DNA of 64,000 bases, from positions 384,001 through 448,000 of the forward strand of contig OY970325.1 in assembly GCA_963717145.1 (NCBI GenBank). The letters are read 5' to 3'. Made by a program: the position numbers and the translations under genes. Below the pieces are notes generated by a model, which saw only the letters and a list, made by a program, of their open reading frames with translations, was not told where the DNA came from and searched no databases. Below are positions 1-63,698 of the stretch, piece by piece. The DNA comes from an uncultured Armatimonadetes bacterium. Its GTDB lineage: Bacteria; Armatimonadota; UBA5829; DTJY01. Numbering within the stretch: the first letter of the stretch is position 1; the number at the start of each line of letters is the position of its first letter.

Positions 1-406
1 CTACGTCTACCGTCACATGCCGCAGGTCGGAGGCGTCATCCATACGCATTCGAACTACGCGACCGCCTTCGCCGCGCTCGGGAAGCCGATCCCATGCTAC
101 CTGACAGCGATGGCAGACGAGTTCGGCGGCCCGATCCCGATCTCGGACTATGCGCGGGTCGGCGAGGAGGAGATCGGCCGGGAGATCGTGGACAAGATCG
201 GCGACTGCCCGGCGATCCTGATGAAGAACCACGGCGCCTTCACCATCGGGCGGACCGTCCCCGATGCGTTCAAGGCGGCGGTGATGCTCGAGGACATCGC
301 GAAGACGTGCCACCTCGCGCTCCAGGTCGGGCGTCCCCTCGAGATCCCGCCCGAGGAGGTCGCCCGCGCGCACAAGCGGTACGTCGACAAGTACGGACAG
401 AAATAG
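1..406 (+). CDS. araD: L-ribulose-5-phosphate 4-epimerase / class II aldolase, 5'-truncated by window edge
   Basis: VIHTHS..ATAFA and LMKNHG zinc motifs; frame open from the window edge; upstream of ribulokinase. Confidence 0.85.
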   Translation, partial: YVYRHMPQVGGVIHTHSNYATAFAALGKPIPCYLTAMADEFGGPIPISDYARVGEEEIGREIVDKIGDCPAILMKNHGAFTIGRTVPDAFKAAVMLEDIAKTCHLALQVGRPLEIPPEEVARAHKRYVDKYGQK

Positions 407-441
407 AGTATGGGAGTATGGGAGTATGGGAGTATGGGAGT
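406..441. repeat. (GAGTATGG)n octamer tandem repeat, left part, split by IS3
   Basis: 4.5 perfect units starting within the araD stop codon. Confidence 0.95.
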
Positions 442-495
442 TGATCTTGCCTCGAATTAGTGGGCACCGGATAATAAGAGATGAGGTGACCCAAG

Positions 496-777
496 ATGAA
501 GAGGCAGTATTCAGAAAGCTTCAAGGCGGAGGCGGTGAAGTTGGCTTTTTCCGGCAGGGCGAGCAAAGCTCGGATCGCAAAGGAACTGGGAGTCAACATC
601 AACAGCCTGGACGCCTGGATCAGGAAGTACAAGGAGAGCCTGGGAGAGATCGATCCCAGGAAGAGAGAGTCCCTTGAGGACGAAGTGAAGCGTCTCCGCA
701 AGGAGAACGATCTCCTCCGAGAGGAGAGAGACATATTAAAAAAAGCGGCGGCGTACTTTGCGAGGGAGCAGCAGTGA
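496..777 (+). CDS. IS3 transposase OrfA (HTH)
   Basis: KRQYSESFKAEAV...IAKELGV...ILKKAAAYF, typical OrfA. Confidence 0.95.
   Translation: MKRQYSESFKAEAVKLAFSGRASKARIAKELGVNINSLDAWIRKYKESLGEIDPRKRESLEDEVKRLRKENDLLREERDILKKAAAYFAREQQ
738..745 (+). other. -1 programmed ribosomal frameshift motif A7G of IS3
   Basis: AAAAAAAG near the end of orfA; orfB lies in the -1 frame. Confidence 0.8.
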
Positions 778-1643
778 AGTACGCCTTCATCGCTGCTCAA
801 GACGGTCGCTTCAGGATCGGGACGATCTGCGGGGTGCTCGGTGTGAGCCGGAGCGGCTACTACGCGTGGCAGGGGCGTCCCGAAAGCGATCGCGCCAGGA
901 AGAACGAGAAGCTGCTCACACGGATCAGGGAGGTCCACGCCGAGAGCAGAGACACCTACGGTAGCCCGAGGGTTCACATACGGCTTCGGCAGGCGGGTGA
1001 GACCTGCAGCAGAGGCCGTGTGGCCAGGCTCATGACAGCAAACGGAATCCGCGCAAGACAGAAGCGGAAGTTCCGTGTTACGACTAACTCCAGGCACAAC
1101 CAGCCTGTGGCGGCGAATCTGCTCAAGAGAAACTTCGAGGTAGCCAGACCGAACAGTGTCTGGGTAAGCGACATAACGTATGTGCATACCCGTGAGGGTT
1201 GGCTCTATCTTTCGGCGGTGATGGATCTTTACTCGCGCCAGATAGTGGGCTGGTCGATGAAAGAGACGCTTGGGAGTGTGCTCGCAAGTGAGGCGCTCAG
1301 GATGGCATACAAGAACAGAAGACCGGTCGGTGAAGTCATCCATCATTCGGATCGAGGGTGTCAGTACGCGAGCGGCGAATTTCGTAGGCTTCTCGAAGCC
1401 TACGAAATTCGAGCCAGCATGAGCGGCGCCGGGGATTGCTATGACAACGCCCCGATGGAGAGCTTCTTTGCGACGCTTAAGGCCGAGCTGATACATCATC
1501 GAACATACTCCTCACGAGAGGAAGCGAGATCTGATATCTTCGAGTACATCGAAGTGTTCTACAATCGACAGCGACTCCACTCGAGCCTCGGCTATCGGAG
1601 TCCCGCCGATTTCGAGGCGGCCGCTCTCGAACGAGCGGCCTAG
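774..1643 (+). CDS. IS3 transposase OrfB (DDE core)
   Basis: WVSDITY, HHSDRGCQY, DNAPMESFF; GTGA overlap with the orfA stop. Confidence 0.95.
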   Translation: MKYAFIAAQDGRFRIGTICGVLGVSRSGYYAWQGRPESDRARKNEKLLTRIREVHAESRDTYGSPRVHIRLRQAGETCSRGRVARLMTANGIRARQKRKFRVTTNSRHNQPVAANLLKRNFEVARPNSVWVSDITYVHTREGWLYLSAVMDLYSRQIVGWSMKETLGSVLASEALRMAYKNRRPVGEVIHHSDRGCQYASGEFRRLLEAYEIRASMSGAGDCYDNAPMESFFATLKAELIHHRTYSSREEARSDIFEYIEVFYNRQRLHSSLGYRSPADFEAAALERAA

Positions 1644-1674
1644 GTGATCTGTCCACGAAAACGGGGCAGGATCA

Positions 1675-1768
1675 AGTATGGGAGTATGGGAGTATGGGAG
1701 TATGGGAGTATGGGAGTATGGGAGTGTGGGAGTATTTCGGACTCCCATACTCCCATACCCCCACACTC
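1675..1768. repeat. (GAGTATGG)n right part plus inverted (ACTCCCAT)n arm, forming a hairpin
   Basis: About 7.5 forward units, TTCGG loop, then ACTCCCATACTCCCATACCCCCACACTC directly before the araB RBS. Confidence 0.95.
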
Positions 1769-1781
1769 TGAGGAGGTTATC

Positions 1782-5014: not shown

Positions 5015-5131
5015 GTCCTGAGTATGCCGGTGAATGACGGCATGTAACGAAGGACGGTGGCATATGTCCAGTGTTTGGCTGCACAAGGCCGCCCTTCGTT
5101 ACATGCCGTCATTCACCGGCATACTCAGGGC
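5015..5131. repeat. 43-bp inverted repeat element (REP/MITE-like) between convergent genes
   Basis: Arms 5015-5057 and 5089-5131 match 41/43; each arm holds an internal ATGCCG..CGGCAT hairpin. Confidence 0.9.
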
Positions 5132-5148
5132 TGACGGTGTTCGGTTCC

Positions 5149-5194
5149 CCAACATCCAACACCCGACACCCAACACCCAGTACTCCAGTACTCC
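5149..5194. repeat. Degenerate CCAACAC heptamer tandem repeat
   Basis: CCAACAT CCAACAC CCGACAC CCAACAC CCAGTAC..; related units near 41066-41082. Confidence 0.75.
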
Positions 5195-10419: not shown

Positions 10420-10998
10420 ATGATTAGAGGCGAAAAGGTAATACTCCGGGCGATCGAACCCGACGATGTGCCCCAGCTTTGGGAGTGGATGCAGGACGAG
10501 GAACTGATGCGGTTGCGTGACTACCCGATGCCCCCGACATCGCTCGATCAGGCGCGCAGGGAGTTCGAGCAGTCGCCGGACAACAGTGCAGATCATCTGC
10601 ACCTTGCGATCACCACCCTCGATGGCGAGTTGATCGGCGAGACGACTCTTCGCGACATCGACCAGCGGAATAGGGGTGCGATCTTCACGATTGCGATCGG
10701 AGACAGGAAGAACTGGGGGCACGGATACGGCTCGGATGCGACTCGCTGCCTGATGAAGTACGCGTTCGAGCAGATGAACCTGCATCGCATCGACCTCTTT
10801 GTCCATGCCACGAACGAGCGCGCGATCAAGGCTTACGAGAAGTACGGATTCCAGCACGACGGCCGGCTCCGTGAGGCGCACTACATGGATGGCAAGTACT
10901 CCGACGTGCTGCTCATGGGCCTCCTGTATGACGACTTCAAGGCAGCAGAGGAGGCTCGGACGCAGCCCGATGTGGCTCGGATCCCGGCTCACATGTAG
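10420..10998 (+). CDS. GNAT N-acetyltransferase (RimJ/RimL family)
   Basis: WGHGYG, N.RAIKAYEK.GF..EG-like motifs. Confidence 0.9.
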   Translation: MIRGEKVILRAIEPDDVPQLWEWMQDEELMRLRDYPMPPTSLDQARREFEQSPDNSADHLHLAITTLDGELIGETTLRDIDQRNRGAIFTIAIGDRKNWGHGYGSDATRCLMKYAFEQMNLHRIDLFVHATNERAIKAYEKYGFQHDGRLREAHYMDGKYSDVLLMGLLYDDFKAAEEARTQPDVARIPAHM

Positions 10999-11064
10999 TG
11001 GCCGCGCCTCCGTGCCGGCCTGAGGCGTGCCATGGCCGGCACGGAGGCGCGGCCACTACATGTG
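10990..11064. repeat. GTAG-type REP doublet (REPIN-like)
   Basis: 31-bp perfect inverted arms CACATGTAGTGGCCGCGCCTCCGTGCCGGCC; relatives at 52747-52775 and 57278-57344. Confidence 0.9.
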
Positions 11065-12140: not shown

Positions 12141-12230
12141 TGGAGTGCGGAAGCGGAGTCTGCGGAGCTTCCGCTTTGGCTCGTCTGCAAAGCAAAGCGG
12201 AAGCTCCGCAGACTCCGCTTCCGCACTCCA
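12141..12230. repeat. TGGAGTGCG-type REP doublet
   Basis: 38-bp perfect inverted arms 12141-12178 and 12193-12230; relative at 46018-46137. Confidence 0.9.
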
Positions 12231-13667: not shown

Positions 13668-13805
13668 TCTGCTCTCCCGTGGGGTTGAAGCCCCAGTCTA
13701 TCACCGAAGCATGCTGAAGCAAGCTCGCACCATTATACTATGCGCGGGGTTGCTTACTCCAGCGTGCCTGGTTGATCATATGTGGTGCAAGGACTGACTG
13801 CGCGG

Positions 13806-14720
13806 TCAAAGGAGCCTGCTGACTGTGGACACGACGTGATCGTGGATGTCGGCCGGGATGCATCCGTTGACGATCTCGATTGACATCAGTCTGCCGGGAC
13901 GTCCAGCTATCTTGATAGTCGATCCCGACAGATCAAGGCAGCCACTCAGAGGCTTGACCGCGTGTGCGATCCCCGGTCTGAACGCGAGCTGCCACTTAGT
14001 GGCCGAGATACGGACGAGTGAACAGTCTACCGCATGTCGGGCGAAAACCTTGCTGCCCAAGTATACGCTGCGATTCGCTGACATATCGTACACGGCCATT
14101 GTCATCCCTCCGAGTGTCGCAACTGCAAGGGGCTCCTCGGCTAGTATCTGTTCCGCAAGTTCCTCCAGTCTGATCTGAGCCTCGATTCTCACGAAGTCAT
14201 CGCTGGTGAATGCCTGACCAAATGCAAGTCGTTCCAGGACTCCGTGGTCACACTTGCCCACGTAGCCCGATAGCAGGCGGAACCAGTCGCGCTCCCAGGG
14301 TGTGCCTTTCTCACCTGCGTAACATATGTTGCCTATACCCGCGTAGTGCTGATCGTCCGATGCCAGCCACCTGGCCAACAATACTCCTGCGGGTGTGGAC
14401 AATGCCTCGTTATACTCGATGTGCTGGCATAGCCGCTGTAGTTTCTCAAGCACTGTCGGGGGCCAGGGATGGTGGTCAATCCAGAACACTTCCACGCCGG
14501 CATCCTTCAAAGCCTGCACCGCTTCGACCGAGGGCTCGTCGGCGGGAACATCGGTCACGTACAGCCTGGTCGGCGGGTACTTCAGGGCAGAGTGCAGCTT
14601 GCTCGCGATCCATCTAGCGTTAGAGTACTGCACTCGGTAGTCGGACTGCTCGCGCCGAATGAGTTGGGCCGCGCAGGTCATGCCGTCAACATCGCCATGT
14701 GTGATGATGAGCGCGGTCAT
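13806..14720 (-). CDS. DHH-family phosphoesterase
   Basis: THGDVDG, VTD, WIDHH; ATG 14720 overlaps upstream TGA (ATGA). Confidence 0.8.
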   Translation of the reverse strand: MTALIITHGDVDGMTCAAQLIRREQSDYRVQYSNARWIASKLHSALKYPPTRLYVTDVPADEPSVEAVQALKDAGVEVFWIDHHPWPPTVLEKLQRLCQHIEYNEALSTPAGVLLARWLASDDQHYAGIGNICYAGEKGTPWERDWFRLLSGYVGKCDHGVLERLAFGQAFTSDDFVRIEAQIRLEELAEQILAEEPLAVATLGGMTMAVYDMSANRSVYLGSKVFARHAVDCSLVRISATKWQLAFRPGIAHAVKPLSGCLDLSGSTIKIAGRPGRLMSIEIVNGCIPADIHDHVVSTVSRLL

Positions 14721-15571: not shown

Positions 15572-15614
15572 GATATACTCCTGCAACGTTCCGCCAGCGC
15601 TCGATCTCGGTGGT

Positions 15615-25012: not shown

Positions 25013-25070
25013 CAAAGCATGCTGAAGCAAGCTGCGGACCCCAATCCCCAGCTTGCTTCAGCATGCTTTG
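25013..25070. repeat. 22-bp inverted repeat between convergent genes
   Basis: CAAAGCATGCTGAAGCAAGCTG and its reverse complement; lone arm at 13707-13725. Confidence 0.85.
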
Positions 25071-26643: not shown

Positions 26644-27036
26644 TCATTCCTCGAGCCAATGCCCTGGAAGCAGTTCCCGCAGGGGAACGACGACTTCCTC
26701 CGACATGATCACCATGCAATCCAGGTTGCGGATATCCAACTGAGCCATGGTCTCCCTGCACCGTCCGCAAGGTGGCAGGACTCCGCCACGTTTCACTGCC
26801 ACCGCGTCGACGATGTGGGTCTCGCCATTCTTGATCATCTCTGCCATTGCCGCAACTTCCGCGCAGAATCCGAGGCCGCATGCCAGGTCAATGCAGACCC
26901 CGGTGTAGATGTTGCCGGCCACAGTGCGGATGGCAGCACCTACTCCGCCGGCGGAGAAATCCTTTCTGAGCGGGATATCCCTGCAGACAGCCGTCGCCGC
27001 CTGAATCAACTCGTTCCGCGATTTCGCATTCCGCAT
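26644..27036 (-). CDS. cdd: Cytidine deaminase family
   Basis: FCAE and PCGRCRE zinc motifs. Confidence 0.85.
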
Positions 27037-27042
27037 TCCACA

Positions 27043-27948
27043 TTACCCCTTGATCCCGCTCAGCTTGATGCCCTCGACGAAGTAGCGCTGGTTGAAGATG
27101 AAGAGCAGCAGGACGGGGATCAGCGCGATCATCGAGCCGGCCATGAGCTGCGTGTAGTTCGTCGCGTGCTGGCCGACGAAGTACCGCAGGCCGATCGGGA
27201 GAGTGCGCAGCGCCTCGGTGACGGTCACGATCAGCGGCCACATGTAACTCCCCCAGAAGCCCATGAACGTGAACGTCGTCAGCGTCGCGAGCGCGGGCTT
27301 GCTGAGCGGGAGGATCACCCTCGCGAAGATGCCGATGTAGCCCGAGCCGTCGATCTTCGCGGCGTCCTCGAGTTCCGACGGCAGGCCCATGAAGAACTGC
27401 CGGAGCATGAACGTGCCGTACGCGCTGAACAGGCCGGGGATGATCAGCGCCTGATAGGTGTTGATCCAGCCCAGACTGCTTCATGATCACGAACACGGGG
27501 ATCATCGTCACCGAGCCGGGGATCATCATCGTCGCGAGGTAGGCGAAGAAGAGCTTGTCGCGGCCGGGGAACTGCAGCCGGGCGAAGGCGAAGGCCGCCA
27601 TCGAGCTGGTCAGCACCTGGCCGAATGTGCCCACGATCGCCACGAATATGCTCGACAGATACAGGCGCGGGAAGCTGATCTCCTTCCAGGCGTCCGGGTA
27701 GTTGCCCCACCACGCGCGGATCGACTGGCCGCCGATGACCGTGTCCTGCCAGAAGAGATGCTCCGGGAGCAGGTTGATCCCGCCGCCGGGCGCGAAGACC
27801 TCGTTCGGCTGCTTGATCGACGTGCTGATCATCCACAGGAACGGCACGAGCATGCTGACCGCCCCGATGCTCAGGATGGTACAGGCCGATACGAGCCGAC
27901 TAGGCCGGTTCTGTTCCGAATCGGATTCGGATTCGAATTCCTAGTCAT
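27043..27948 (-). pseudogene. Sugar ABC permease (MalG-like), frameshifted
   Basis: FAFARLQFPGR, ELEDAAKIDG (EAA motif), NQRYFVEGI across frames. Confidence 0.85.
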
Positions 27949-29106: not shown

Positions 29107-29147
29107 ACCGTCTCCATAGGTCACATCCGTCCCATCGGTCCCATCGC

Positions 29148-34122: not shown

Positions 34123-34138
34123 GAGAACCTCCTGCGGA

Positions 34139-34196
34139 GAATGGGAGAGTGGGGGAATGGGAGCGCCCAGTCTCCCATTCCCCCACTCTCCCATTC
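34139..34196. repeat. Octamer-based 25-bp hairpin overlapping the GH4 stop codon
   Basis: GAATGGGAGAGTGGGGGAATGGGAG and perfect reverse complement. Confidence 0.9.
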
Positions 34197-36765: not shown

Positions 36766-39572
36766 TATCTCCGGACCTCCGCCTTCAGGGTGACTATCTG
36801 CCTGGTCTTGATCGCCAGGTTCGCGGATCCGCCGCTCCACTGCTCGCCGCCCTCGGGCACATCCTCATTGAGGTCCGTCTGAACGACGCTGTGCAGGCCC
36901 GAGAGATGAATCTTGCACGAAGCTGTATCGGCATGCGTCATGTTGACCGCGCGCAGGACGAGAGCATCCTCCCTTGAAGCTTTCTTCAGCGCGGTCATCA
37001 CGACCTCCGGCGAATCGATGCCGACGAAGCTACTTTCGCCGGGAAGGTCCCCGGAATGGATGCCGGTCTGGACCGCGCGCATCGGAACGTTGTGCGCCCA
37101 CGCCTGCTGCCAGGCCTTCGACTCCTGCCAGCCGTCCTTGTGCGGGCTGATTGCGTAACTGAACCGCTGCTTCCCGATGAGCTGCCCACCCTCCTGGTTC
37201 TCCGGTCCGCCGACGCCGCCGATGACCGAGCGCATCAGTGTGACGGCCACCGTCCGATCCACATCGTCCAGTACCTCGAACTCCGGCTGCCCGGCGTTGA
37301 TGACGGTGAGCCCGATCCCCTCGCCGCTGACGTCGACGAACGACTTCTGCGGGTGGGTCGAGGGCATCGGCTCGATCCAGTCGGGGCACTCCATGGTCTT
37401 GATCGGCCGGGTGACGACATCGAAGAGGCTCTCGGAGTTCGACTCCTCGGCTTCGACACCCGAGGGGAACAGCACTCTCAGCCGGTGATCGCGCGCCGTG
37501 TTGTCCACGTGAGTGACAATGTCCACGCGTCTAGAACCTCGCGCGAGGCTGACGTAGCTGGTGAAGGGGATGTCCGTCGTGTTGGCGCTTCTCTCGCGGC
37601 CGTTCGGATTCATCGACCCCGGCACGGTCAGAACCGTGTCGACCTTGAACGTGGCGCGCGCCGGACCGTTCTCGACGAGCGAGACCTGCGCCCGGCTGCC
37701 GATGCTCATCACCACCGTGTCCTTGAGCGGCTTGCGGTAGTTCCATCCGTCGCCGAAATCGCCGCCGTCCTCGAAGATCATCCCGCCCGCGTAGACTTCC
37801 TCGGTCTCTTTGTCTATCACAGTCAGCGTGCCGTCGGAATCGATCGCTACGATGAGGTGCTCGTTCTCGGCGGAGTTCGGGCCGTTCACGAGCGTCCCGA
37901 CCGGTCGATAGGGCGTATCGAGCGCCCGGACGTAGAAGGTCTTGTATCCGACCGAGGGAACTCCATTGGCGAGGAATGCGATCTTGTAGAGCTTAGTCGG
38001 AGTGCCGGTCGGGATATCGTACCACTCCTGATCGAACAGGCTGCCTTGATGCGCGTCGAGCACCTGGAACGGGACTTCAGATCCATCCGCGTCCACGACC
38101 TTGATGCCCTTCACATGCCAATCGTTCGGCAGATTGACTTCGGCGTCCACGACCTCCGAGCGTTCCCAGGACAGCGGGTTGAAGACGACGAGGGCGATGG
38201 CTGATGGGGAATGGTTGATGGTTGATGGTTGATGGGGGATGGTTGATGCTTCCGGCTCCCCATTAGCCATTAACCATGAACCATTGACCGTCGTCGTCAC
38301 CTTTCCCGCTATGAACTGAAGGCTTGTCGATGCGACCGGCTCGGCGATCATGCGCGCCTGATCGAAGCGGTAGACCATGTCCTTGTGTACGTGATCGAGG
38401 CTGCAGCCGCAGATCGAGTCGTGCGGGTGGTTCTGGAGCAGGTACTTCCACGCCAGCGCGATGTACGACGACGGATAGTCCCGCCCAAGAGTCCACGCGA
38501 TCGCGGAGAACGGCTCGGCCCACTTCTCGAGCAGCGTCTCGATCTGATGGTTCGCCTGCTTGAGATGGATGCGCGATGACATCACGCCGGCGAGAACGGC
38601 CTGCAGTTTCCACTTGCGGTTGCTCCATCGAAGCTCGCCCTCGATCGCCTGCAGTTCGGGGTTCTCCGACCTCACTGCCTCGACGAAGTCCGGGAGCGTG
38701 CTGTGGACCATCGCGCCGAGGTCCGTGTTGTGGTTCACGTCGCGAATGATTGCCGGGATCAGAGGGTTGGCGAGGATGTGATCGACCCCATCCATGAAGA
38801 GCAGGTGCGAGGTTGTCGGCTTCTCGCGCTCGCAGTCGGCCACGAGATCGGCGACCTCCTGCCGTGCCTTCGTGAGCCACTCGGTATCGGACGCCGGATC
38901 CCAGTCGGGTGCTTCGGATGGCTGAGGGGTGGGCGATGGTCCGGCTGACTGCAGTCGGTTCTCGCTCGCAGTCTTCAATCTGTTCGCTAGCGCGAGGGTC
39001 GTTCTCAGTCTGTAGTAGAAGTTGGAGTATGCATTGTCGTCCGGCATCTTTACGCACAGCACCTCTGAGCCGTCCGGACTGCGCCATGTAAACTCCGACT
39101 TAACCTGGTCGGCGCTGATGCCGCGGAAGAGCACAGCGTTGTCGATCCCGAAGCTGCGCATGAGTTGCGGGAACTGCGAGATGTGGCCGAAGCAGTCGGG
39201 CACGTATCCGATGCGCATCCAGTTGCCCCAGTCGTCGCCCATCGCGCGGCCGAGCATCAGGTTGCGGATCATCGACTCGCCGCTCACCAGGAACTCGTCC
39301 GGCTGGTTGTACCACGGGCCGATGAGGATTCGCCCCTCGCGCACCAGGCTCCGCAGTACCTCCTCGTTTTCTGGGCGGATCGCGAGGTAGTCGTCGAGCA
39401 TGATCGTCTGGCCGTCCATGTGGAAGTGCTTATACTCAGGGTTGGCCTGGAGGAGCTTGATCAGCTCGTCGATCAGGTCCACAAGGCGCATGCGGAAGTG
39501 TTGGAACGAGCGATACCACTCCCGGTCCCAGTGGGTGTGGCTGATGACATGCATGGTGTACTTCTTGGGCAA
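36765..39572 (-). CDS. GH38 alpha-mannosidase / mannosylglycerate hydrolase-like
   Basis: HTHWDREWY, DGQT, PDCFGH, HPHDSICGCS. Confidence 0.92.
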   Translation of the reverse strand: MPKKYTMHVISHTHWDREWYRSFQHFRMRLVDLIDELIKLLQANPEYKHFHMDGQTIMLDDYLAIRPENEEVLRSLVREGRILIGPWYNQPDEFLVSGESMIRNLMLGRAMGDDWGNWMRIGYVPDCFGHISQFPQLMRSFGIDNAVLFRGISADQVKSEFTWRSPDGSEVLCVKMPDDNAYSNFYYRLRTTLALANRLKTASENRLQSAGPSPTPQPSEAPDWDPASDTEWLTKARQEVADLVADCEREKPTTSHLLFMDGVDHILANPLIPAIIRDVNHNTDLGAMVHSTLPDFVEAVRSENPELQAIEGELRWSNRKWKLQAVLAGVMSSRIHLKQANHQIETLLEKWAEPFSAIAWTLGRDYPSSYIALAWKYLLQNHPHDSICGCSLDHVHKDMVYRFDQARMIAEPVASTSLQFIAGKVTTTVNGSWLMANGEPEASTIPHQPSTINHSPSAIALVVFNPLSWERSEVVDAEVNLPNDWHVKGIKVVDADGSEVPFQVLDAHQGSLFDQEWYDIPTGTPTKLYKIAFLANGVPSVGYKTFYVRALDTPYRPVGTLVNGPNSAENEHLIVAIDSDGTLTVIDKETEEVYAGGMIFEDGGDFGDGWNYRKPLKDTVVMSIGSRAQVSLVENGPARATFKVDTVLTVPGSMNPNGRERSANTTDIPFTSYVSLARGSRRVDIVTHVDNTARDHRLRVLFPSGVEAEESNSESLFDVVTRPIKTMECPDWIEPMPSTHPQKSFVDVSGEGIGLTVINAGQPEFEVLDDVDRTVAVTLMRSVIGGVGGPENQEGGQLIGKQRFSYAISPHKDGWQESKAWQQAWAHNVPMRAVQTGIHSGDLPGESSFVGIDSPEVVMTALKKASREDALVLRAVNMTHADTASCKIHLSGLHSVVQTDLNEDVPEGGEQWSGGSANLAIKTRQIVTLKAEVRR
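38197..38291. repeat. ATGGTTG heptamer hairpin element inserted in-frame in GH38
   Basis: 7 forward units and 5 inverted units; same family at 57991-58013 and 59086-59156. Confidence 0.88.
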
Positions 39573-39597: not shown

Positions 39598-39666
39598 TCA
39601 TACTCATACTCCTACTCCTACTCAAAAGGCCCGGAAGCATGAGTACGAGTAGGAGCATGAGTATGA
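39598..39666. repeat. Hexamer (TACTCA/TACTCC) tandem hairpin
   Basis: TCATACTCATACTCCTACTCCTACTC ... GAGTACGAGTAGGAGCATGAGTATGA. Confidence 0.85.
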
Positions 39667-39809
39667 GCAGGCAGCCGACGGCTACTGGCTAGATGATAGC
39701 CGTTCAACAGGCGAGGTGTCAAGGAATCCGACTGCCGCCGTGAAGGTCTATTCCCCTCGCGGGTCTAACGTCATGACGTAACAACTTCGAGGAGGAGACC
39801 GCAACAACA

Positions 39810-41142: not shown

Positions 41143-41619
41143 ATGCCGATTGACCATGACAAGATCAAGAAGCTGATCTCGCTGGTTGAGCAGAACAGCC
41201 TCACCGAACTCACGGTCGAGGAGGAAGGGCTCAGCGTCACCATCAGGGCCGAAGCCGCCGTCGCGCCTCAGGTCGTCTCCATGCCGGTGACGGAGGTTGC
41301 CATCGGGGTCGAATGCCCCGCCGGCGAGGTGACTGAGGCCGTGTCGGTTGAAGCGGTTGACGAGTCACATCTCTTCCGAGTCGAGTCGCCGATGACCGGA
41401 GTCTTCTACCGAACGCCCGCGCCCGACCAGCCGAACTACGTGGAGATCGGCGACGAGATAGAGGTCGGCCAGACCATCGGCCTTATCGAGGCGATGAAAG
41501 TCTTCAGCGAGGTACCATCGGATGTCGCGGGCATCGTCGTAGAGATCCCGGCGGAGGGCGGCAAGCTGGCCCAAGTCGGCGACGTGCTCGTCATCGTTGA
41601 CACCTCGGCAGCAGTTTAG
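41143..41619 (+). CDS. accB: Biotin carboxyl carrier protein
   Basis: SPMTGVFY, IEAMK. Confidence 0.9.
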   Translation: MPIDHDKIKKLISLVEQNSLTELTVEEEGLSVTIRAEAAVAPQVVSMPVTEVAIGVECPAGEVTEAVSVEAVDESHLFRVESPMTGVFYRTPAPDQPNYVEIGDEIEVGQTIGLIEAMKVFSEVPSDVAGIVVEIPAEGGKLAQVGDVLVIVDTSAAV

Positions 41620-41806
41620 AACACAGAGGCACAGAAGGCAGAGGAAGGCACAGAAAAGGCGTTTATCAGGAAACCAGGAAGATAGGAATCCAGGAAGGGA
41701 GAAAAGGCAAGACGGGGAACTCATCCGTTCTACCGCTCTCCGATTTCCTTCCTGCCTTCCTCATAGAGAATTCCGTGTTTCTGTGTGTTTCCGTGCTTCT
41801 GTGTTC
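41619..41806. repeat. Nested palindrome (ACACAGAA outer arms, CAGGAA inner arms)
   Basis: Purine-rich left half and pyrimidine-rich right half; sibling at 43109-43279. Confidence 0.8.
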
Positions 41807-41820
41807 TCCGGAGAATCATA

Positions 41821-43108: not shown

Positions 43109-43279
43109 GAACACAGAAACACAGAAGGACACAGAAAGTCGGAAGTTTGGTCAGGAAGCCAGGAAGGGAGGAAACCAGGAACAACTGATTTCGAATTCTT
43201 CCTGGTTTCCTCCCTTCCTGGCTTCCTGATAGAAAAGCTTTTTCCGGGTCTTCCGTGTTCTTTCCGTGCTTCTGTGTTC
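43109..43279. repeat. Nested palindrome (ACACAGAA outer arms, CAGGAA inner arms)
   Basis: Inner arms TCAGGAAGCCAGGAAGGGAGGAAACCAGGAA with perfect reverse complement. Confidence 0.88.
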
Positions 43280-46017: not shown

Positions 46018-46137
46018 TTTGGAGTGCGGCGGCTTGACGCCGCTTCGGAGTGCGATGGCTCGACATCGCTTTGGAATCCGGCGCCGCCGTGTCAAGCCAC
46101 GGCTCAGCAAAGCGATGTCGAGCCATCGCACTCCAAA
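46018..46137. repeat. TGGAGTGCG-type REP composite
   Basis: GGAGTGCGATGGCTCGACATCGCTTTG and its reverse complement, plus an extra GGAGTGCGG unit. Confidence 0.85.
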
Positions 46138-46148
46138 GGAGCATCAGC

Positions 46149-48464: not shown

Positions 48465-48530
48465 CCCGTGTGGCTGGTTGGGCCGGATGGTGTGTGGTAT
48501 AATGACAATGGAACTGAGAGAGGTTTGTTG

Positions 48531-48905: not shown

Positions 48906-48916
48906 GGGGAAGGGTT

Positions 48917-52662: not shown

Positions 52663-52775
52663 AGGGCTGTAGGGGCGATCCTTCAACGGTCGCCCGTTCG
52701 GTTTCGGCGGGCGACCGTTGAAGGATCGCCCCTACAGCCCTGGCAACATGGCCGGCACAGAGGGACGGCCACTAC
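52663..52775. repeat. GTAGGGGCG REP doublet plus a lone GTAGTGGCC REP arm
   Basis: 33-bp inverted arms 52663-52695 and 52709-52741. Confidence 0.88.
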
Positions 52776-54638: not shown

Positions 54639-54641
54639 GCA

Positions 54642-54710
54642 CTGACCCCGGATGACCCTCACCCCAACCCTCTGAGGGAGAGGGTTGGGGTGAGGGTCAT
54701 CCGGGGTCAG
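54642..54710. repeat. CCCTCACCCC-type palindrome
   Basis: 32-bp perfect arms; relative at 60104-60204. Confidence 0.9.
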
Positions 54711-54759
54711 CGCGGTATCCGCTCGTGCAGCGCCGGACCAACGGGAGGGTTCAGTTCTC

Positions 54760-56010: not shown

Positions 56011-57051
56011 CTACCGCGTCATCTTTTTCCGTCCTCGCAGCAGCAGGAATCCGACTCCTCCTGCGAGCGCGAGCAACGACGATGGTTCGGGAACCATGGT
56101 TGAGAGATAGATATCCGTGCGCCGTTCGGTGCCTTCTCCTGCCCAAGCTACCTTATTGCCGTACACGGAAGGGCTCCAGCCATAAGTGCTTTCACTAACG
56201 CGGCTGATGCCGTGAACAGGATCGAAAGACCGGACCCGGGCCAGATCGATCCCACTCTGCCACACGACCAAGTCGCCCCATAGCTGCGTATATTGGACTT
56301 GAGACCACTCGGTGAACCAATGTTCAGCAAGCGTCCTCCACCCCCCTGCTGGTGTCCATTCATTAAGGTAACCTGGTATCAGATCATAGCCATTGCCGTT
56401 CCAATGATCGTAGCCAAGCGACCAGGCGACCACCTTGTCCTCATACACGGCGGGCGATATCCCACTCCCCAGGTTTACCGCTCCTCCTTCCGCAGTCCAC
56501 ATATACGTCCCGTGCTGGCTGTCATCCCAGACCACGCGGTTTCCCCAGATCTTTGGATCTTCCTGCCACGTGTTGCTCGGGAACAGCGCTCTATTGCCGT
56601 TTATGGGGTCATACATGTAGACCTGCGGTCTGCCGCTCTCCCAATTCTCATAGACAACGGTGTCGCCGAAGATGGATGCGTCGTATTGATCTCCCGGCGC
56701 GGTGCTTATCGGCCTCTCGCCGTTGATGGGATCATAGATATACAGATCGAGTTGGTCGTTCACGTAGTGGTTCGTCACCAGCTTGTCTCCATACACGGCG
56801 TTTATATTCCGATTTACGCCATCGCCGCCCAGCAGTCGTCTTGATGCCTGAGCCTGATCCCGAACGTAGATTTCCCCGTAGCTGCTCTCCCAGCTAGCAT
56901 AGTAGAGGTTGTCTCCCCAGACTTTCGGTGTATGTTCAGCCCATGGCGTGTTGGTGATCCTTTGTTCCTGCCATATCTGCTGGGAGAACGCATGCGTGGA
57001 GAGGATGGCCCCAAGAGTGAGGGCCAGGAGGGTAATGCGAGTCGTCTTCAT
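56011..57051 (-). CDS. PEP-CTERM protein with beta-propeller-like repeats
   Basis: Signal peptide; P..wG..vv repeats; VPEPSSLLAL..TM..RGRKK. Confidence 0.88.
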   Translation of the reverse strand: MKTTRITLLALTLGAILSTHAFSQQIWQEQRITNTPWAEHTPKVWGDNLYYASWESSYGEIYVRDQAQASRRLLGGDGVNRNINAVYGDKLVTNHYVNDQLDLYIYDPINGERPISTAPGDQYDASIFGDTVVYENWESGRPQVYMYDPINGNRALFPSNTWQEDPKIWGNRVVWDDSQHGTYMWTAEGGAVNLGSGISPAVYEDKVVAWSLGYDHWNGNGYDLIPGYLNEWTPAGGWRTLAEHWFTEWSQVQYTQLWGDLVVWQSGIDLARVRSFDPVHGISRVSESTYGWSPSVYGNKVAWAGEGTERRTDIYLSTMVPEPSSLLALAGGVGFLLLRGRKKMTR

Positions 57052-57180
57052 TCGTGTACCGCCTTCCGTTCGGTGTGCTGGTACTGCTGAAAACCTTCCG
57101 CTACTATGTGAGACACTGCTTGGCCGCAAAAGGTTAGGCCGTTGAAGTGGAAAAGCCGGCAAACCTCACAGTACTCTATC

Positions 57181-57277: not shown

Positions 57278-57344
57278 TGTAGTGGCCGTGCCTCTGTGCC
57301 GGCCATATCACGTTGCAGGCCGGCACAGAGGCACGGCCACTACA
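57278..57344. repeat. GTAG-type REP doublet
   Basis: TGTAGTGGCCGTGCCTCTGTGCCGGCC and its reverse complement. Confidence 0.9.
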
Positions 57345-57347: not shown

Positions 57348-57992
57348 TCAGTAGAGCCCTTCGAGGAGCACTTCGCGGCCGAGAGGGATGACCTCGCAGT
57401 ACTTCCACAGGCTGTCCAGGAAGCAGCGGTTGGCGCACAGTCCGCCGGAGACGTAGAGCCTCTCGGGCTTCTGCGCGAAGGTGTGGACGTTGAACGCGAT
57501 GCCGTGAACGAACGCCGCGAGCGCATCCTCCGCCAAGCCCCCGTGGATGATCGCGTCGAAAATCCTCTCGATGGCGAACACCCCGCAGGTCACCGGCAGG
57601 CGCTGATCCGAGACCGGCAGCCTGCTGTAGTCCACCTTGTAGTACTCGCCGAGCAGCTCCAGCGTGAACCCCGTCGTCGCCCCGCACGCCTGGTTCCAGT
57701 CGAGCTTGTCGAGCTTGCGATCGGTGAACCGAACGTACTTCGTGTCCCGGCAGCCGATGTCCACCACCGTGAAGTTGTCCTCGTGTACCAGCTTGAGGCT
57801 CCCCTGTGCGAGGGCGACAAGCTCGTTCTCGTAGCAGTCGGTCCGTCCACGTCCGAGGTGCCCGGTCGCGACATCGAAGCGGATCGACTCGTCGGCCAGG
57901 ACCTGGCGTGTCGGCGCAATAAGAACTTCATTCACCTCGAGGTTCTTGATCTTGCTCCACGAACTTCCACAGTCAGCAATCACAGTAGGCAT
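57348..57992 (-). CDS. 2-hydroxyacyl-CoA dehydratase activase-like ATPase (short)
   Basis: DCGSSWSK, ATG, VDIG.RDTK, N..CGA.TG, CGVFA, SGG. Confidence 0.8.
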   Translation of the reverse strand: MPTVIADCGSSWSKIKNLEVNEVLIAPTRQVLADESIRFDVATGHLGRGRTDCYENELVALAQGSLKLVHEDNFTVVDIGCRDTKYVRFTDRKLDKLDWNQACGATTGFTLELLGEYYKVDYSRLPVSDQRLPVTCGVFAIERIFDAIIHGGLAEDALAAFVHGIAFNVHTFAQKPERLYVSGGLCANRCFLDSLWKYCEVIPLGREVLLEGLY

Positions 57993-58013
57993 GGTTGATG
58001 GTTAATGGTCTAT

Positions 58014-59085
58014 TGTCCAGTCTCATGACATTATGAACACCGTGGGTTGAAAAGAAGGAGGTGCATGCGGTAGTCTCTTTGATGATCGCCAAACCAAAAA
58101 AGGAGACCACTCGCATGCAGATCCATTCTAACGCAACCAGCAATATGAAGCAACGGCGGTTTTTCAGGCAGAGTCCCAAGAGCTGCAGAAAGCTCGCAGA
58201 TATCTGCCATGTATCGCCGGCAACAGTCTGCAAATGGAAGGCCCGGGGTGACCAGCAAGACCGCAGCAGTCGGCCCAGGAAGATCCATTATGCATTCAGC
58301 CCCGAAGAGGAGGAGATCATCCTCTCGCTCCGGGACAAAGGTCTAGCACTCGATGCACTGGTGCGTGCAGTAGTCACAGTTCTGCCGAATGCAGAACGCG
58401 CCAGTATACATCGCTTACTGAGCAGAAAAGGGGTGAGCAGACTCCCCCAGTACCAAAAAGAAAAGAGAGAAAGTCCAGGCAAGTTCAAAGAGTATCTGCC
58501 TGGATACCTTCACATAGACTGTTTCTACCTGCCCAAGATCGGGGGCAAGAGGAAGTATTGCTTCGTTGCGGTAGACAGAGCAACAAGGCTAGCCTTCCTC
58601 CAGGTGTACGACAACCTAACCAAGGAATCCGCAGTGGGCTTCCTTGGACTGTGCATGTGGTTCTATCCGTTCATGATCCACAAGATCCTGACAGACAACG
58701 GTAGAGAGTTCACTCTGGCCAATTGGAGCCGTTGGGGCAGTCCGGCGAAGAGACCTCACTTCTTTGATGAAGTATGCTCAGCCTGTGGTATTGAACACAG
58801 GCTCACCCGGCCGTATACACCAAAGACCAACGGTCTGGTGGAACGCATGAACGGACTGATCCAGGAGGGCACGTACAAGATGCACAGATATCCTGGATAT
58901 CCGGAGTTGATAGATGGACTCCACCAGTGGCTGACCATCTACAATCTAAGGAGACAGCACAGCGCGATCGGTGGCAAGACACCCTATGAGAAGGTCTGCG
59001 ACTGGTACGCGCAAAGACCAGATCTGTTTATCAAAGAGCCTACCGACTTACTGAACTACCGTTCACAACGTGGTGGGACTTGACA
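58014..59085 (+). mobile_element. IS481-family insertion sequence (1072 bp)
   Basis: TGT...ACA ends; 25-bp IRs match 19/25; single transposase whose stop lies in the right IR; no perfect TSD. Confidence 0.9.
58115..59083 (+). CDS. IS481 transposase
   Basis: IHSNA, PGYLHID, LTDNGREF, PKTNGLVERMN. Confidence 0.92.
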   Translation: MQIHSNATSNMKQRRFFRQSPKSCRKLADICHVSPATVCKWKARGDQQDRSSRPRKIHYAFSPEEEEIILSLRDKGLALDALVRAVVTVLPNAERASIHRLLSRKGVSRLPQYQKEKRESPGKFKEYLPGYLHIDCFYLPKIGGKRKYCFVAVDRATRLAFLQVYDNLTKESAVGFLGLCMWFYPFMIHKILTDNGREFTLANWSRWGSPAKRPHFFDEVCSACGIEHRLTRPYTPKTNGLVERMNGLIQEGTYKMHRYPGYPELIDGLHQWLTIYNLRRQHSAIGGKTPYEKVCDWYAQRPDLFIKEPTDLLNYRSQRGGT

Positions 59086-59148
59086 GTTGATGGTTCATGG
59101 TTAATGGGGAATGGGAATGGGAAATGAGACTTGGTCTGCCATCAACCA

Positions 59149-59880
59149 TCAACCATTTCCCCGTAGTCTGACGAACGCCGAGACCTTCGCGACTACGCTG
59201 TTTGTCACCGGGCCGTCGCAGTCCACATACAGGCCGTGGTGCTTCTCGGCCAGATACCGCGCCAGGCTGTTTTTCGCACAGAACGACTGCGCGTAGAAGA
59301 CCGTCGGGACAGCCGGATCGACCTCCATCTCGAGTTCGAGGTCGGCTGGCGCCCCGGCCTCGACGCACCTCGACCAGCCGTAGACGTGAGTCGTATCCGG
59401 GAAGAGTCGCAGCAGATCGAAGTCGTGCGGAGGAACGCCCCAGAACCCGTGAGTCGGCTCGACCCACTTGTGCCGCTTGCGGTTCGGTGCGACCACCGTA
59501 TTGGTGATCCGTTTGATCTTCTCCACGAGCGGCAATCCGCACGTCGAGATCGTGATCGGCCCCCGCTCCGTCTCGGTGTTGCGTGTCTCCACGATCGGAA
59601 AGCCCAAGTCGCTCAGGATGATAGCCGCGAACCGTCCGCCGTCGCATTTATCCTCGCCGATCGCTGCGATGATGATTCGAAGCTCCTTGCGGAGGTGGAC
59701 CGAGTTGTCCACGATGTTGGTGATGATCTGGCAGTACGCATCCGGCACAAGGCCGCACGGAGGCGCGCTCATGTCCAGGTCCAGGTCGATGAACTCATCG
59801 AACGGGTGCTTGCGCCTGTACTGATCTATCACCTGTCGGGGAGGCACTCCCCAGTAGCCGATTAGCTTTGACTGAGCCAT
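59149..59880 (-). CDS. Cys-rich hypothetical protein, partner of the activase
   Basis: G(Y/F)WGVPP twice; YC, DKC, RC, FC cysteines; co-oriented with the activase across the IS. Confidence 0.7.
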   Translation of the reverse strand: MAQSKLIGYWGVPPRQVIDQYRRKHPFDEFIDLDLDMSAPPCGLVPDAYCQIITNIVDNSVHLRKELRIIIAAIGEDKCDGGRFAAIILSDLGFPIVETRNTETERGPITISTCGLPLVEKIKRITNTVVAPNRKRHKWVEPTHGFWGVPPHDFDLLRLFPDTTHVYGWSRCVEAGAPADLELEMEVDPAVPTVFYAQSFCAKNSLARYLAEKHHGLYVDCDGPVTNSVVAKVSAFVRLRGNG

Positions 59881-60103: not shown

Positions 60104-60204
60104 CGGACCCTCACCCCCGACCCCTCTCCCTCAGAAGGGCGAGGGGAGCAGCTTGCAGTCCCCCCTCGCCCTTCTGAGGGAGAGGGGTCGGGGGTGAGGG
60201 TCCG
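60104..60204. repeat. CCCTCACCCC-type palindrome
   Basis: 43-bp perfect arms 60104-60146 and 60162-60204. Confidence 0.9.
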
Positions 60205-61458: not shown

Positions 61459-61530
61459 GTGAACAGTCGACGGTGAACGGTGAATGGTGAACGGTGCAAA
61501 TGGTTGGGGCAGGAGTTGGACTCCTGCCCC
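61459..61530. repeat. TGAACGG heptamer run followed by a GC hairpin
   Basis: TGAACAG TCGACGG TGAACGG TGAATGG TGAACGG; GGGGCAGGAGT-TGG-ACTCCTGCCCC. Confidence 0.75.
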
Positions 61531-61562
61531 GTGTGGAAAAGCTGTTTGATGCGAGGGATGAT

Positions 61563-62612
61563 CTACCGTCGCCTTCGGATGAGCCCAGCCAGTGCGAGCA
61601 GGCCGCTCCCCAGTGCGAGGAGGCTCGACGGCTCGGGGACGACGTTGTGCCACAGGACCGCGTCATACTTGTTTGTGGCCCAGTTGTGCGCGTAGCCGGA
61701 GATCCAGATATCGTTGCCCACCACCTCGATGCTTCGTGCGCTGGATTCCTGATGCCCAGTGCCCAGTAAGGCGTGGAGATCCACAAAGCTCTCCGCCGTT
61801 CCGCTCCATATGCCCGCGTGGCCACCGCTCCCGAAAGACGCGCCTCCGACCTGCAGGCCGCCGGAGACGTCTCCGATAGACGAACTGATGGCACCGGCGG
61901 GATTGAGGTCCATCCAGCTTGCCGCCGTGCCACTCCACATGCCGGCATGATCATGCGCCTCTCCGAACTGCTGCGCACCTGAAGCGTCACGGACCATAGA
62001 CCAGTTGCTCCCGATGGGATTGAGGTCCACGAAGCTCTGCGCCGTTCCGCTCCATATGCCCGCGTGACCTCCTGCAATCCCATACTGATGGCCGCCTGAG
62101 GCGCCGAAGGCATAGGAAAAAGTCCTCCCGGCGGGATGCAGATCCACCCAGGTCGCCGCTGTCCCGCTCCACATGCCGGCGTGACTAGCTCCGCCGATTG
62201 TGGCATATCCGACCTGCTGACCGCCTAGGACTCCCAAGGCAATGGACCACGGGCTCCCAGCGGGATGGAGATCCACCCAACTTGCCGCCGTCCCGCTCCA
62301 CAGCCCGGCGTGCTGGACGCCGCCGGTGACGGCGAATCCGACCTGCTGGCCTGCTGCGACGCCATAGGCTCGGGACTCGGTGGCTCCGGCGGGATTGAGG
62401 TCCAGCCAGCTCTCGGCCGTCCCGCTCCAGATGCCGCCGCGAGTGCTGCCGCCGATGGTCGCGTATCCGGCCTGCTGGCCTCCGGACATGCCGTAAGCAC
62501 GGGACTCAGTGGCTCCGACGGGAGTGAGGTACGTCACCGTCCATCCGGCCAAAGCGGAGGTGGTGACTACGAAGACAAGTAGTGCGGTGAAGATGAGCCA
62601 ATGCTTGTTCAT
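61563..62612 (-). CDS. PEP-CTERM protein with about 7 tandem 35-40-aa repeats
   Basis: HAG.WSGTA.S..DL.P.G repeats; VPEPSSLLAL..TM..RRRR. Confidence 0.9.
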   Translation of the reverse strand: MNKHWLIFTALLVFVVTTSALAGWTVTYLTPVGATESRAYGMSGGQQAGYATIGGSTRGGIWSGTAESWLDLNPAGATESRAYGVAAGQQVGFAVTGGVQHAGLWSGTAASWVDLHPAGSPWSIALGVLGGQQVGYATIGGASHAGMWSGTAATWVDLHPAGRTFSYAFGASGGHQYGIAGGHAGIWSGTAQSFVDLNPIGSNWSMVRDASGAQQFGEAHDHAGMWSGTAASWMDLNPAGAISSSIGDVSGGLQVGGASFGSGGHAGIWSGTAESFVDLHALLGTGHQESSARSIEVVGNDIWISGYAHNWATNKYDAVLWHNVVPEPSSLLALGSGLLALAGLIRRRR

Positions 62613-62672
62613 TCCGAATCTCCTCTAATACAGGATTGTGGCGAGAAGACTGGTCCGCCAGTAGACTACACA

Positions 62673-62688
62673 TGCAAGATTCGTGCCA
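62673..62688 (-). promoter_or_regulatory. Sigma54 (-24/-12) promoter
   Basis: TGGCACGAATCTTGCA, identical to 57181-57196. Confidence 0.85.
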
Positions 62689-62804
62689 AAGCGGGCAGCA
62701 AGCCGGTAATACTGCCTGGAGATGGCCAGGAGAAGTCGAATTGCCCATGACTTTGCATCACGCCAGGTGGTATACTAGGCGAAACGGCGATGAGAGGTGA
62801 GATC

Positions 62805-63590
62805 ATGACACACGCGCGAATCATGTACGACATGACCGTCAAGGAGATAGTCGAGGGCCTGGAGGAGACCCGGACCGTCGTCATCCCCATCGGGATGATC
62901 GAACAGCACGGGTATCATCTGCCGACGAGCGTGGACGTCCACAACTCCGCGGAGATCGCCCGCAGGACGTCCGAGGCGACCGGCTGCTTCGTGACACCCT
63001 CGGTCCACTACAACATATCCGGCGGGATGCTCCCCGGCACGATCAACATCACCCCGCAGGTGTTCTCGCTCATGCTCATGGACATCATGCAGAGCCTCGT
63101 GATGCAGGGGTTCAAGAACATCATCCTGCTGCTGGGACACGGCGGCCTGGAGAGCGGGACGGCTGCCAAGGATGCCGCCACGTTCTTCCAATGGCTCAGA
63201 CCCGAGATGCCGGGGGTCAACGTCTGCCTGCTCGGATTCTGGGAGCTTTCGCCGACGTACTGGGAGATGTGCCAGAAAGGCGACTGGCATGCGGGCCTGC
63301 TCGAGACCTCGATGATGCTCTACTGGAAGCCCGAACTCGTGAAGCTCGACCAGGCGCAGTATGACGAGGGAGAGATACTCCCGCTCATGCGCAAGGACCC
63401 GTATATGTTTGCGAACAAGCTCAAGAACGTGGACAACAAGTTCGTCGTGCCGAGAATCATCCAGGACCCGCGAATCAAGGTGGGCGTCATGGGCGACTTG
63501 ACGGGCGCGAACCCGGAACTCGGCCGCAAGATCGCGGAGGAGTGCATCTCCGGCCTGGCCAAGTTGATAGCGGAGTTGGAGGCAGATTAG
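62805..63590 (+). CDS. Creatininase family amidohydrolase
   Basis: EQHGYHLP..VD, GHGG, HAG..ETS. Confidence 0.9.
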   Translation: MTHARIMYDMTVKEIVEGLEETRTVVIPIGMIEQHGYHLPTSVDVHNSAEIARRTSEATGCFVTPSVHYNISGGMLPGTINITPQVFSLMLMDIMQSLVMQGFKNIILLLGHGGLESGTAAKDAATFFQWLRPEMPGVNVCLLGFWELSPTYWEMCQKGDWHAGLLETSMMLYWKPELVKLDQAQYDEGEILPLMRKDPYMFANKLKNVDNKFVVPRIIQDPRIKVGVMGDLTGANPELGRKIAEECISGLAKLIAELEAD

Positions 63591-63591
63591 T

Positions 63592-63698
63592 CTGTAGGGG
63601 CGTGCCTTGTGCCGCCCACCCGGCGTACCGTTCCTGTAGGGGCGTGCCTTGTGCCGCCCGGCATGCGGTTGCAGGCGGCACAAGGCACGCCCCTACAG
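63592..63698. repeat. GTAGGGGCG REP triplet
   Basis: Two direct copies of CTGTAGGGGCGTGCCTTGTGCCGCCC and one inverted copy. Confidence 0.9.

Follow-up and report, generated by a model that had tools for sequence, protein, structure and literature searches.

Hairpin repeat families at operon junctions of an Armatimonadota genome and the small genes enclosed by their arms

What are the small palindromic elements that stand behind so many stop codons in an uncultured Armatimonadota bacterium, and how did they come to be there? The window analysed here (G000:C1:384001-448000; 64,000 nt of a genome, G000, that is a single contig of 5.37 Mb with 60.6% G+C) holds a series of them. An earlier note, made from the letters alone, had taken them for about ten unrelated families that dock at stop codons and are mobilised, apart from the GTAG-headed repeats, by largely undescribed proteins encoded elsewhere. 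We found that every named family has a gene enclosed by its own arms, in G000 or in relatives. The window elements are probably gene-less members of several selfish hairpin families, each with a rare gene-bearing 'master' form that has the same inverted arms.

Small genes inside the repeat arms

When the inverted and tandem repeats between the genes of G000 were clustered, 1,386 elements fell into more than 30 clusters. With 39 family motifs written by hand from these clusters, and with hits deep within genes filtered out, we counted 1,197 loci with inverted- or tandem-repeat support, covering 110,637 bp or 2.06% of G000. All window elements named are members of these genome-wide families, and the motifs read by the earlier note were present at 21 of its 21 positions. 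The families it called unrelated do exist genome-wide, but they group into five partner-gene classes: Y1 (HUH) transposases, GIY-YIG, DUF559, GxxExxY and four-helix-bundle proteins.

Family searches of G000 returned 3 GxxExxY, 4 four-helix-bundle, 7 Y1, 2 DUF559 and 3 GIY-YIG hits, none of them in the window, in agreement with the earlier note's statement that no mobiliser is encoded there. Two of the GIY-YIG hits, long UvrC-like frames, were set aside, and an arm-enclosure scan added a Y1-like gene at 4878131 (HUH motif by eye). All 18 remaining partner genes lie in or beside their own arm type: CAGGAA, CACAGAA and CACGAAT arms for GxxExxY; GATGGTT, TTCGAAA, TGCAAAA and GGGTT(A/T)T for the bundle genes; four GTAG arm types, AAGCATGCTG and three other types for Y1; two C-run/G-run types for DUF559; and CTCTCGTTATG for GIY-YIG. 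The master form consists of one small promoterless gene placed just behind a host stop in the host direction, so that it is transcribed with the operon. Each of the 18 cassettes has the direction of its upstream gene, and 14 start within 20 nt of the upstream stop or overlap it; in the other four, a weakly scored gene or a fragment of an insertion sequence (IS) intervenes.

By Pfam, the GxxExxY proteins are PDDEXK_3 and the bundle proteins 23S_rRNA_IVP (PF05635), and DUF559 falls near REase_MTES_1575. The Y1 genes at G000:3783917, 827258 and 242007 are flanked by a matching GTAG repeat, and the first exceeds the NCBIfam cut-off for REP_Tyr_transpos. The AAGCATGCTG partner scores 88.5 as IS200/IS605 (cut-off 55) and 25.2 as REP_Tyr_transpos (cut-off 80), and is not of the REP-associated type (REP, repetitive extragenic palindrome). 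This IS200-like transposase (G000:C1:1557531-1558193, L207) is single-copy, carries a Y---Q--HH motif and has on both sides AAGCATGCTG doublets that also occur alone; the motif is described as the signature of subclass 1.2, generally without terminal structures (PMC6006769).

The pairing recurs in relatives (53 genomes of the same class, from which the best-scoring loci were returned per partner family). With a local score of at least 24 as the threshold, inverted arms stand around four-helix-bundle genes at 26 of 28 loci (two more were lost to contig ends) and around GxxExxY genes at 27 of 30; among 400 control genes, 18 have them. A second bundle set has such arms at 37 of 39 loci (a 40th gave no hit), and short GIY-YIG genes have them at 16 of 23. 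CCTGAG..CGAAGG lies on both sides of 5/6 genes in one GIY-YIG clade, the sixth being the gene of G000, and a BoxC-type motif lies on both sides of 16/25 DUF559 genes versus 2/615 controls. Bundle genes also occupy hexamer arms (L160-162, L166), an octamer arm (L149) and GTGAAC (L175), GAATGCG (L080, L152, L165) and GGGTGTT arms (L059, L064, L065); a Y1 partner for TGGAGTGCG was found in G001 only. By a rough open-reading-frame rule that leans towards co-oriented calls, the cassette follows the direction of the upstream gene in 24/25, 24/26 and 17/19 loci of three sets and starts within 30 nt of its stop in 18/24, 18/24 and 5/17. The four families that had been proposed as candidate mobilisers (GxxExxY, four-helix-bundle, DUF559 and GIY-YIG) are thus enclosed by the expected arms far above control genes. 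The earlier reading of largely undescribed mobilisers may apply to the GxxExxY, bundle and DUF559 pairings, which look undescribed; it does not hold for TGGAGTGCG and AAGCATGCTG, which go with Y1 (HUH) transposases and are therefore REP-like rather than new, nor for the GIY-YIG pairing, which has a published counterpart (Ssn/NTS), and CCCTCACCCC is BoxC-like.

Could the gene-less copies simply be scars, left where a whole cassette inserted and later lost its gene by deletion between the arms, with no movement of their own? Inverted arms around a gene favour such deletion, families persist without a gene, and broken cassettes exist, among them a split RAYT (REP-associated tyrosine transposase) at G000:4205435 and several GxxExxY hits with internal stops. 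However, there are hundreds of copies per family to one gene, the loops of gene-less copies are alike, the nested CACAGAA[CAGGAA] form recurs at several sites, and the cognate proteins found no extra remnants in G000 among the best three hits per query. We consider scars unlikely and prefer hairpins that spread as gene-less copies beside a rare master form.

Elements of the window and their sites

The window carries the following elements and ISs.

406..441: octamer element (GAGTATGG), left part, starting in the araD stop codon
442..1674, + strand: IS3-family IS in the octamer arm, with a 3-bp AGT duplication by eye
1675..1768: remainder of the octamer element with the inverted arm; in G004 (L149) a four-helix-bundle gene lies within arms of this type
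5015..5132: CCTGAG..CGAAGG hairpin with 44-bp arms; arm type flanks one small GIY-YIG clade
5148..5194: CCCAACA heptamer array, single arm, four-helix-bundle type
10990..11064: REP doublet (GTAGTGGCC) whose own TAG is the GNAT stop; cognate RAYT G000:3783917
12141..12230: TGGAGTGCG doublet; a Y1 transposase is flanked by this arm type in G001 (L220)
13706..13765: AAGCATGCTG element, decayed; cognate IS200-like Y1 gene G000:1557731
25013..25070: AAGCATGCTG doublet, convergent genes either side
27014..27044: TTCCGCA/GAATGCG heptamer array at an ABC permease stop, overlapping the start of an inserted deaminase gene
29108..29146: GTCCCAT 9-mer array, single arm
34136..34196: octamer hairpin (GGGAGAAT) at the GH4 stop; G006 and G009 have an empty site here
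38192..38292: GATGGTT heptamer hairpin, in frame within the GH38 gene, away from any stop
39598..39671: hexamer hairpin in a divergent spacer; in G001, G004 and G006 genes of one four-helix-bundle clade lie within arms of this type
41618..41807: nested CACAGAA[CAGGAA] element at the accB stop; G000 has GxxExxY genes within arms of either type
43109..43279: nested CACAGAA[CAGGAA] element at the hom stop; G008 empty, four other families in G001, G004, G007 and G009
46018..46138: TGGAGTGCG element at the purC stop
52663..52741: REP doublet (GTAGGGGCGATCC), separated from the preceding ftsH stop by about 70 nt; the RAYT at G000:242007 has related arms on its flanks
54639..54713: BoxC-like hairpin (CCCTCACCCC) at the stop of a TPR gene; empty in G006
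57278..57344: REP doublet (GTAGTGGCC)
57991..58009: GATGGTT heptamer element, left part
58014..59085, + strand: IS481-like IS in the GATGGTT arm
59086..59156: remainder of the GATGGTT element, whose TGA serves as stop for the gene that ends at 59149; the cognate cassette, with a four-helix-bundle gene, is G000:3610364-3610956
60104..60204: BoxC/TM-type doublet with perfectly matched arms of 43 bp, in a divergent spacer behind a tRNA
61459..61524: GTGAACG heptamer array plus GGAGTTGGACTCC hairpin
63592..63698: REP cluster (GTAGGGGCGTG) at the creatininase stop; cognate RAYT G000:827258; empty in G006 and G007

An Rfam scan of the window returned the tRNA only. Of 14 elements folded, 13 are hairpins (z -5.5 to -16, with 0 of 200 shuffles as stable), which bears out their description as palindromic; the decayed copy at 13706 has z -2.5, and the elements at 5149, 27020 and 61459 are single arms instead. 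The GTAG tetranucleotide with its imperfect palindrome forms inverted doublets at 10990, 52663, 57278 and 63592, and at both 41619 and 43109 CACAGAA lies outside and CAGGAA inside.

The octamer pieces at 406 and 1675 are one element split by the IS3 copy, as are the heptamer pieces at 57991 and 59086 by the IS481-like copy; both ISs have their own ends and sit inside the arms. A MITE of a DDE insertion sequence would be known by ends in common with a resident transposon and by a target duplication. The IS3 copy is a parasite of the octamer arm and not its mobiliser. Genome-wide, all 13 hits of the IS481-like element (the window copy and 12 others) adjoin GATGGTT heptamer arms, and its ends also lie at many contig breaks in G009 and G004; the IS3 element (the window copy and seven others) has a GAGTAT hexamer/octamer array within 60 nt of its right end, in one orientation, in 8/8 full-length hits. 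ISs that target REPs, such as ISPpu9, are likewise described as using a repeat family as a safe landing site (PMC8450116, PMC12288879), whereas the targets here are heptamer and hexamer/octamer tandem arms and the elements are of IS481-like and IS3 type.

Docking at stops, as the earlier note described it, is visible by eye at araD, GNAT (TAG within GTAG), GH4, accB, hom, purC, the TPR gene at 54638, creatininase and the ABC gene at 27043. Other placements have to be corrected: the element at 38197 is translated in frame within the GH38 gene (the G001 orthologue carries a shorter insert of similar sequence there), those at 39598 and 60104 lie between divergent genes, that at 52663 lies past a terminator-like hairpin, that at 5015 starts 32 nt behind a stop, and that at 13707 stands upstream of a start.

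Twelve element-bearing window junctions could be compared in relatives, judged by eye. Ten of them are empty in at least one relative (gaps of, for example, 0, -4, 5 and 13), which answers the question of empty orthologous sites, and ten carry an unrelated family in at least one. At hom-thrC, G008 has no gap, and five arm types over six genomes all start a few bases from the same stop. C-termini agree with those of orthologues for accB, hom, purC, the TPR gene, GH4, the permease and badF2; in the gene ending at 59149 the heptamer arm substitutes the stop, adding three residues. Junctions unfilled in G000 are often filled in relatives, so no special hot spots are demonstrable, and at the distance of these relatives (55-91% amino-acid identity) breakpoints are unreadable. 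Exact empty sites inside G000 came to a single case, one local tandem duplication; no exact empty site was found from which to read a target duplication for the hairpin elements, and three sequencing runs with a small share of this DNA gave no usable joint across any element; the runs listed as containing it included none of RNA.

In otherwise conserved operons, the window genes at 26644-27036, 44436-45044, 46875-47258, 48468-49156, 13806-15863 and 56011-57162 are absent from the relatives' orthologous junctions, and at thrC-purC and apgM-tilS the inserted genes differ between relatives. At 27400-30500, sugar ABC transporter genes are called as several short frames while relatives align at 79-88% DNA identity; frameshifts or assembly errors are a possible cause.

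How far do stop codons govern these positions? Genes in G000 were called with a purpose-made hexamer model (4,507 genes, 84% coding); as it overlooks some weak genes, junction statistics are limited to neighbours scoring at least 25. At scorable junctions, 315 of 762 loci lie within 4 nt of a stop and 411 within 10 nt. By class, the labels being partly inferred, the 4-nt counts are 110/199 for bundle-type, 43/93 for GxxExxY-type, 138/357 for REP-type, 20/96 for GIY-type and 4/17 for DUF559-type loci. Co-oriented spacers with at least 120 nt left after element removal have 47 of 126 elements within 10 nt of the stop against 7.5 expected, or 13.8 if only the upstream half were open (a count of 47 was reached in 0 of 100,000 simulations), and long convergent spacers have 11 of 30 against 5.5 (p = 0.011). 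Where the stop lies inside the core motif it is family-specific (TAG in 32/32 GTAG cases, TGA in 16/23 heptamer cases), and GTAG ends are described as often providing the TAG stop (PMC3733652).

The claim that insertion favours stops is borne out only in part, as far as proximity goes, but spacers without a stop are filled equally often: at matched length, 75/243 divergent spacers are filled versus 285/935 (p = 0.94). Spacers of 30-60 nt show no excess at stops (43/106 vs 42.2), and the far end of elements clusters 11-20 nt before the next start, so that many elements just occupy the room between stop and ribosome-binding site. Strict stop-codon targeting was rejected on the divergent spacers and the 30-60-nt null, and no single stop codon is required. 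Stop docking is a strong tendency and not a rule, and some copies lie inside genes. Part of it arises because elements survive in tight operons; we read stop proximity as survival together with a real but partial bias to gene ends, which one genome does not separate.

The excess beside stops, strong even in long spacers, would also be expected if the hairpins were host RNA elements (stabilisers, cleavage signals or ribosome-stalling sites) selected behind stops, with the small genes incidental; in E. coli, an effect on translation is reported for REPs that lie no more than 15 nt from a stop (PMC12306157). Against this, the corresponding junctions of relatives are empty or carry an unrelated family, divergent spacers are occupied just as often, and the arm-gene pairing is left unexplained. 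Nor did we find an orientation bias to transcription beyond chance in 17 families (lowest p 0.03, uncorrected) or a G-U bias to the transcribed strand (63/123, p = 0.86), as expected of DNA-level elements. A host RNA origin seems to us quite improbable, and such a role may act as a secondary filter on selfish hairpins. A fixed intrinsic terminator or RNA stabiliser was rejected on the lack of conserved sites in relatives and of orientation with transcription; insertion at the RNA level was rejected on the lack of orientation and G-U bias and of any reverse transcriptase found in G000.

How the hairpins may spread

Of 510 complete elements, 123 have mirrored flanks of at least 7 nt, where swapping of partners predicts 18, and 63 have such flanks that no other member of the family shares. 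Any lagging-strand bias is weak, with an uncorrected p of about 0.04 in two families. These flanks would fit a scheme in which an arm that has folded into a single-stranded or cruciform hairpin is recognised by the partner protein of its family and, where this partner is of one of the four nuclease types (HUH Y1, GIY-YIG, DUF559 and GxxExxY), is cut by it, as published for RAYT and Ssn; host repair or fold-back synthesis then copies the hairpin to new sites, creating the mirrored flanks. Copies would land widely, with some real added bias towards gene ends, and those between a stop and the next ribosome-binding site would survive, often lending or sharing the stop. The four-helix-bundle protein most likely binds the tandem-word arms and relies on a host or neighbouring nuclease; its role is the weakest step of the proposed mechanism. 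A PDB sequence search tied one bundle protein only to the uncharacterised pentamer 2rld, and phage records held no match to the GATGGTT-clade protein.

On a tree of bundle proteins (71 proteins, 120 columns, many forks weak), arm word tracks clade across genera for the GATGGTT-type (100/100), TTCGAAA (100/99) and hexamer (100/100) arms. A more independent test is the co-occurrence of copies and clade. GATGGTT copies are scattered over both strands in G000 (75 matches), G007 (13) and G009 (12), and in four further genomes the 1 to 14 matches are confined to one or two places; the GATGGTT-clade protein was found in those same three of the 53 genomes and not in G001, the closest relative, despite 15 bundle genes there.

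Several points weigh against selfish hairpins spread by their partner proteins. Arms and gene are inherited together, so that the agreement on the tree shows a unit and not recognition. The three GATGGTT genomes are repeat-rich in general. CAGGAA copies occur in G000 (32), G007 (16) and G009 (11), and a close GxxExxY gene was found only in G000, G007 and G009 being fragmented assemblies; in the complete G000, octamer, hexamer, TGGAGTGCG and BoxC copies occur with no close cognate gene. The compared relatives yielded no exact filled/empty pair, hence no readable breakpoint or target duplication; movement of the elements and cleavage and binding of their arms are what we infer. We also know of no catalytic function in the four-helix-bundle family.

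Intervening sequences of 23S rRNA carry an S23p/four-helix-bundle reading frame. The G000 bundle genes resemble them in holding a PF05635 protein inside inverted arms able to pair in RNA, and their membership of the Pfam family 23S_rRNA_IVP raises the possibility that the arms serve the enclosed gene only, by transcript excision or insulation, and that gene-less copies arise without any protein by slippage, template switching or gene conversion; tandem-word arms are slippage-prone, and mirrored flanks show template switching. Unlike the intervening sequences, however, the PF05635 cassettes of G000, all outside the window, lie at operon junctions between protein genes and have hundreds of gene-less copies, and the 23S gene is uninterrupted (model 1-2925 over 2,992 nt, too short for a cassette). 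No reverse transcriptase was found in G000, dispersed GATGGTT copies track the cognate gene, and four of the five partner classes are nucleases. Protein-free copying is in our view rather improbable, and spread of gene-less hairpins by the products of master forms remains our preferred account.

Known repeats and the wider picture

About half of the hairpin families are of known kinds. RAYT genes are described as flanked by their cognate REPs, with REPIN excisions on record, and the GTAG families share with REP/REPIN-RAYT systems the GTAG-headed inverted doublets, the many extragenic copies and a single RAYT in its own REP (PMC3733652, PMC3116915, PMC6006769). They differ in that G000 holds at least eight Y1 genes with distinct arms, that the AAGCATGCTG partner is of IS200/IS605 type by NCBIfam, and that most other families pair with non-HUH proteins. 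Ssn GIY-YIG nucleases are reported to cut their own repeats as single strands, and a RAYT-like origin of Ssn/NTS was proposed by the authors (Chenal et al. 2025, PMC11893778). As described there, the Ssn/NTS-SRM system also has, with hairpin repeats on either side, a GIY-YIG gene that encodes a single domain in about 100 residues, and many gene-less copies of the repeats; the SRM consensus, however, matches 0 of 80 CCTGAG..CGAAGG loci, whose genes form a separate GIY-YIG clade.

For BoxC, PIT and TMECO triplex-motif repeats, Holder et al. (2015) left the origin open (PMC4666352). They share with the window copies a C-run hairpin and purine tail, intergenic position, frequent inverted pairing and variability between strains, as that paper describes them; its main text mentions neither ycjD nor DUF559 and names no partner gene, whereas in our genomes DUF559 genes stand between copies of the motif. 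The spacer of the window copy measures 5 nt against 3 in the E. coli consensus: TMECO matches at 60108 and 60163 appear only with the spacer relaxed to 3-5 nt (0 in 100 shuffles), no window copy has strict spacing, and G000 has 58 relaxed matches genome-wide. The ycjD gene of E. coli K-12 has a partial TMECO overlapping its 3' end and another TMECO some 170 nt past that end. By eye, a BoxC-like arm stands on one or both sides of eight DUF559 loci of a plasmid collection (of 27 matches), from Deinococcota, Cyanobacteria, Alpha- and Gammaproteobacteria, with arm scores of at least 24 in 5/8 and the strict TMECO consensus in 0/8. A viral collection gave variant-type inverted arms at 16/16 scorable loci (of 17, many near-identical), and a genome-collection scan gave 2 loci only. 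In a Sphingomonas locus (L273, 243-728), a full BoxC-like arm–DUF559 gene–arm cassette sits at the sufB/sufC junction. These sequence comparisons make DUF559 a candidate partner of the E. coli BoxC repeat.

Two side observations concern other repeats. The window gene at 61563-62612 encodes a PEP-CTERM protein with internal repeats of 39-43 residues. Elsewhere in G000 (C1:4725401-4728342, 4912366-4943702 and others), arrays of 1.2-1.4-kb genes are bounded by inverted GTAACAGTTCA or AAGAGTTCACGATC ends and look like integron-like cassettes or tandem IS copies.

Two of the five pairings (Y1/RAYT and GIY-YIG) are known, and three (DUF559, GxxExxY and four-helix-bundle) look undescribed: literature searches, with subscription papers outside their scope, found no published report of them. 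These three carry the REP-RAYT design over to further kinds of small protein. More tentatively, RAYT-REPIN might be one case of a general design in which five unrelated protein families spread gene-less copies of their own arm. DUF559 (E. coli YcjD) might then be the site-specific hairpin nuclease behind BoxC, GxxExxY a second PD-(D/E)XK class, and the bundle proteins diverse arm-specific binders, reading a 6-8-nt word by clade and promoting copying with no catalytic site of their own. The pairings supply candidate partner proteins for repeat families of published open origin (BoxC) and candidate substrates for three widespread protein families whose function is unknown (DUF559, GxxExxY and four-helix-bundle). 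Each brings together a protein, its cognate arm and many non-cognate controls in one genome, which makes for a simple cleavage or binding test, as for Ssn; new sequence-specific single-strand nucleases, if that is what the proteins are, would be useful as tools. More generally, about 2% of a bacterial genome can consist of competing hairpin families that replace each other at shared operon junctions.

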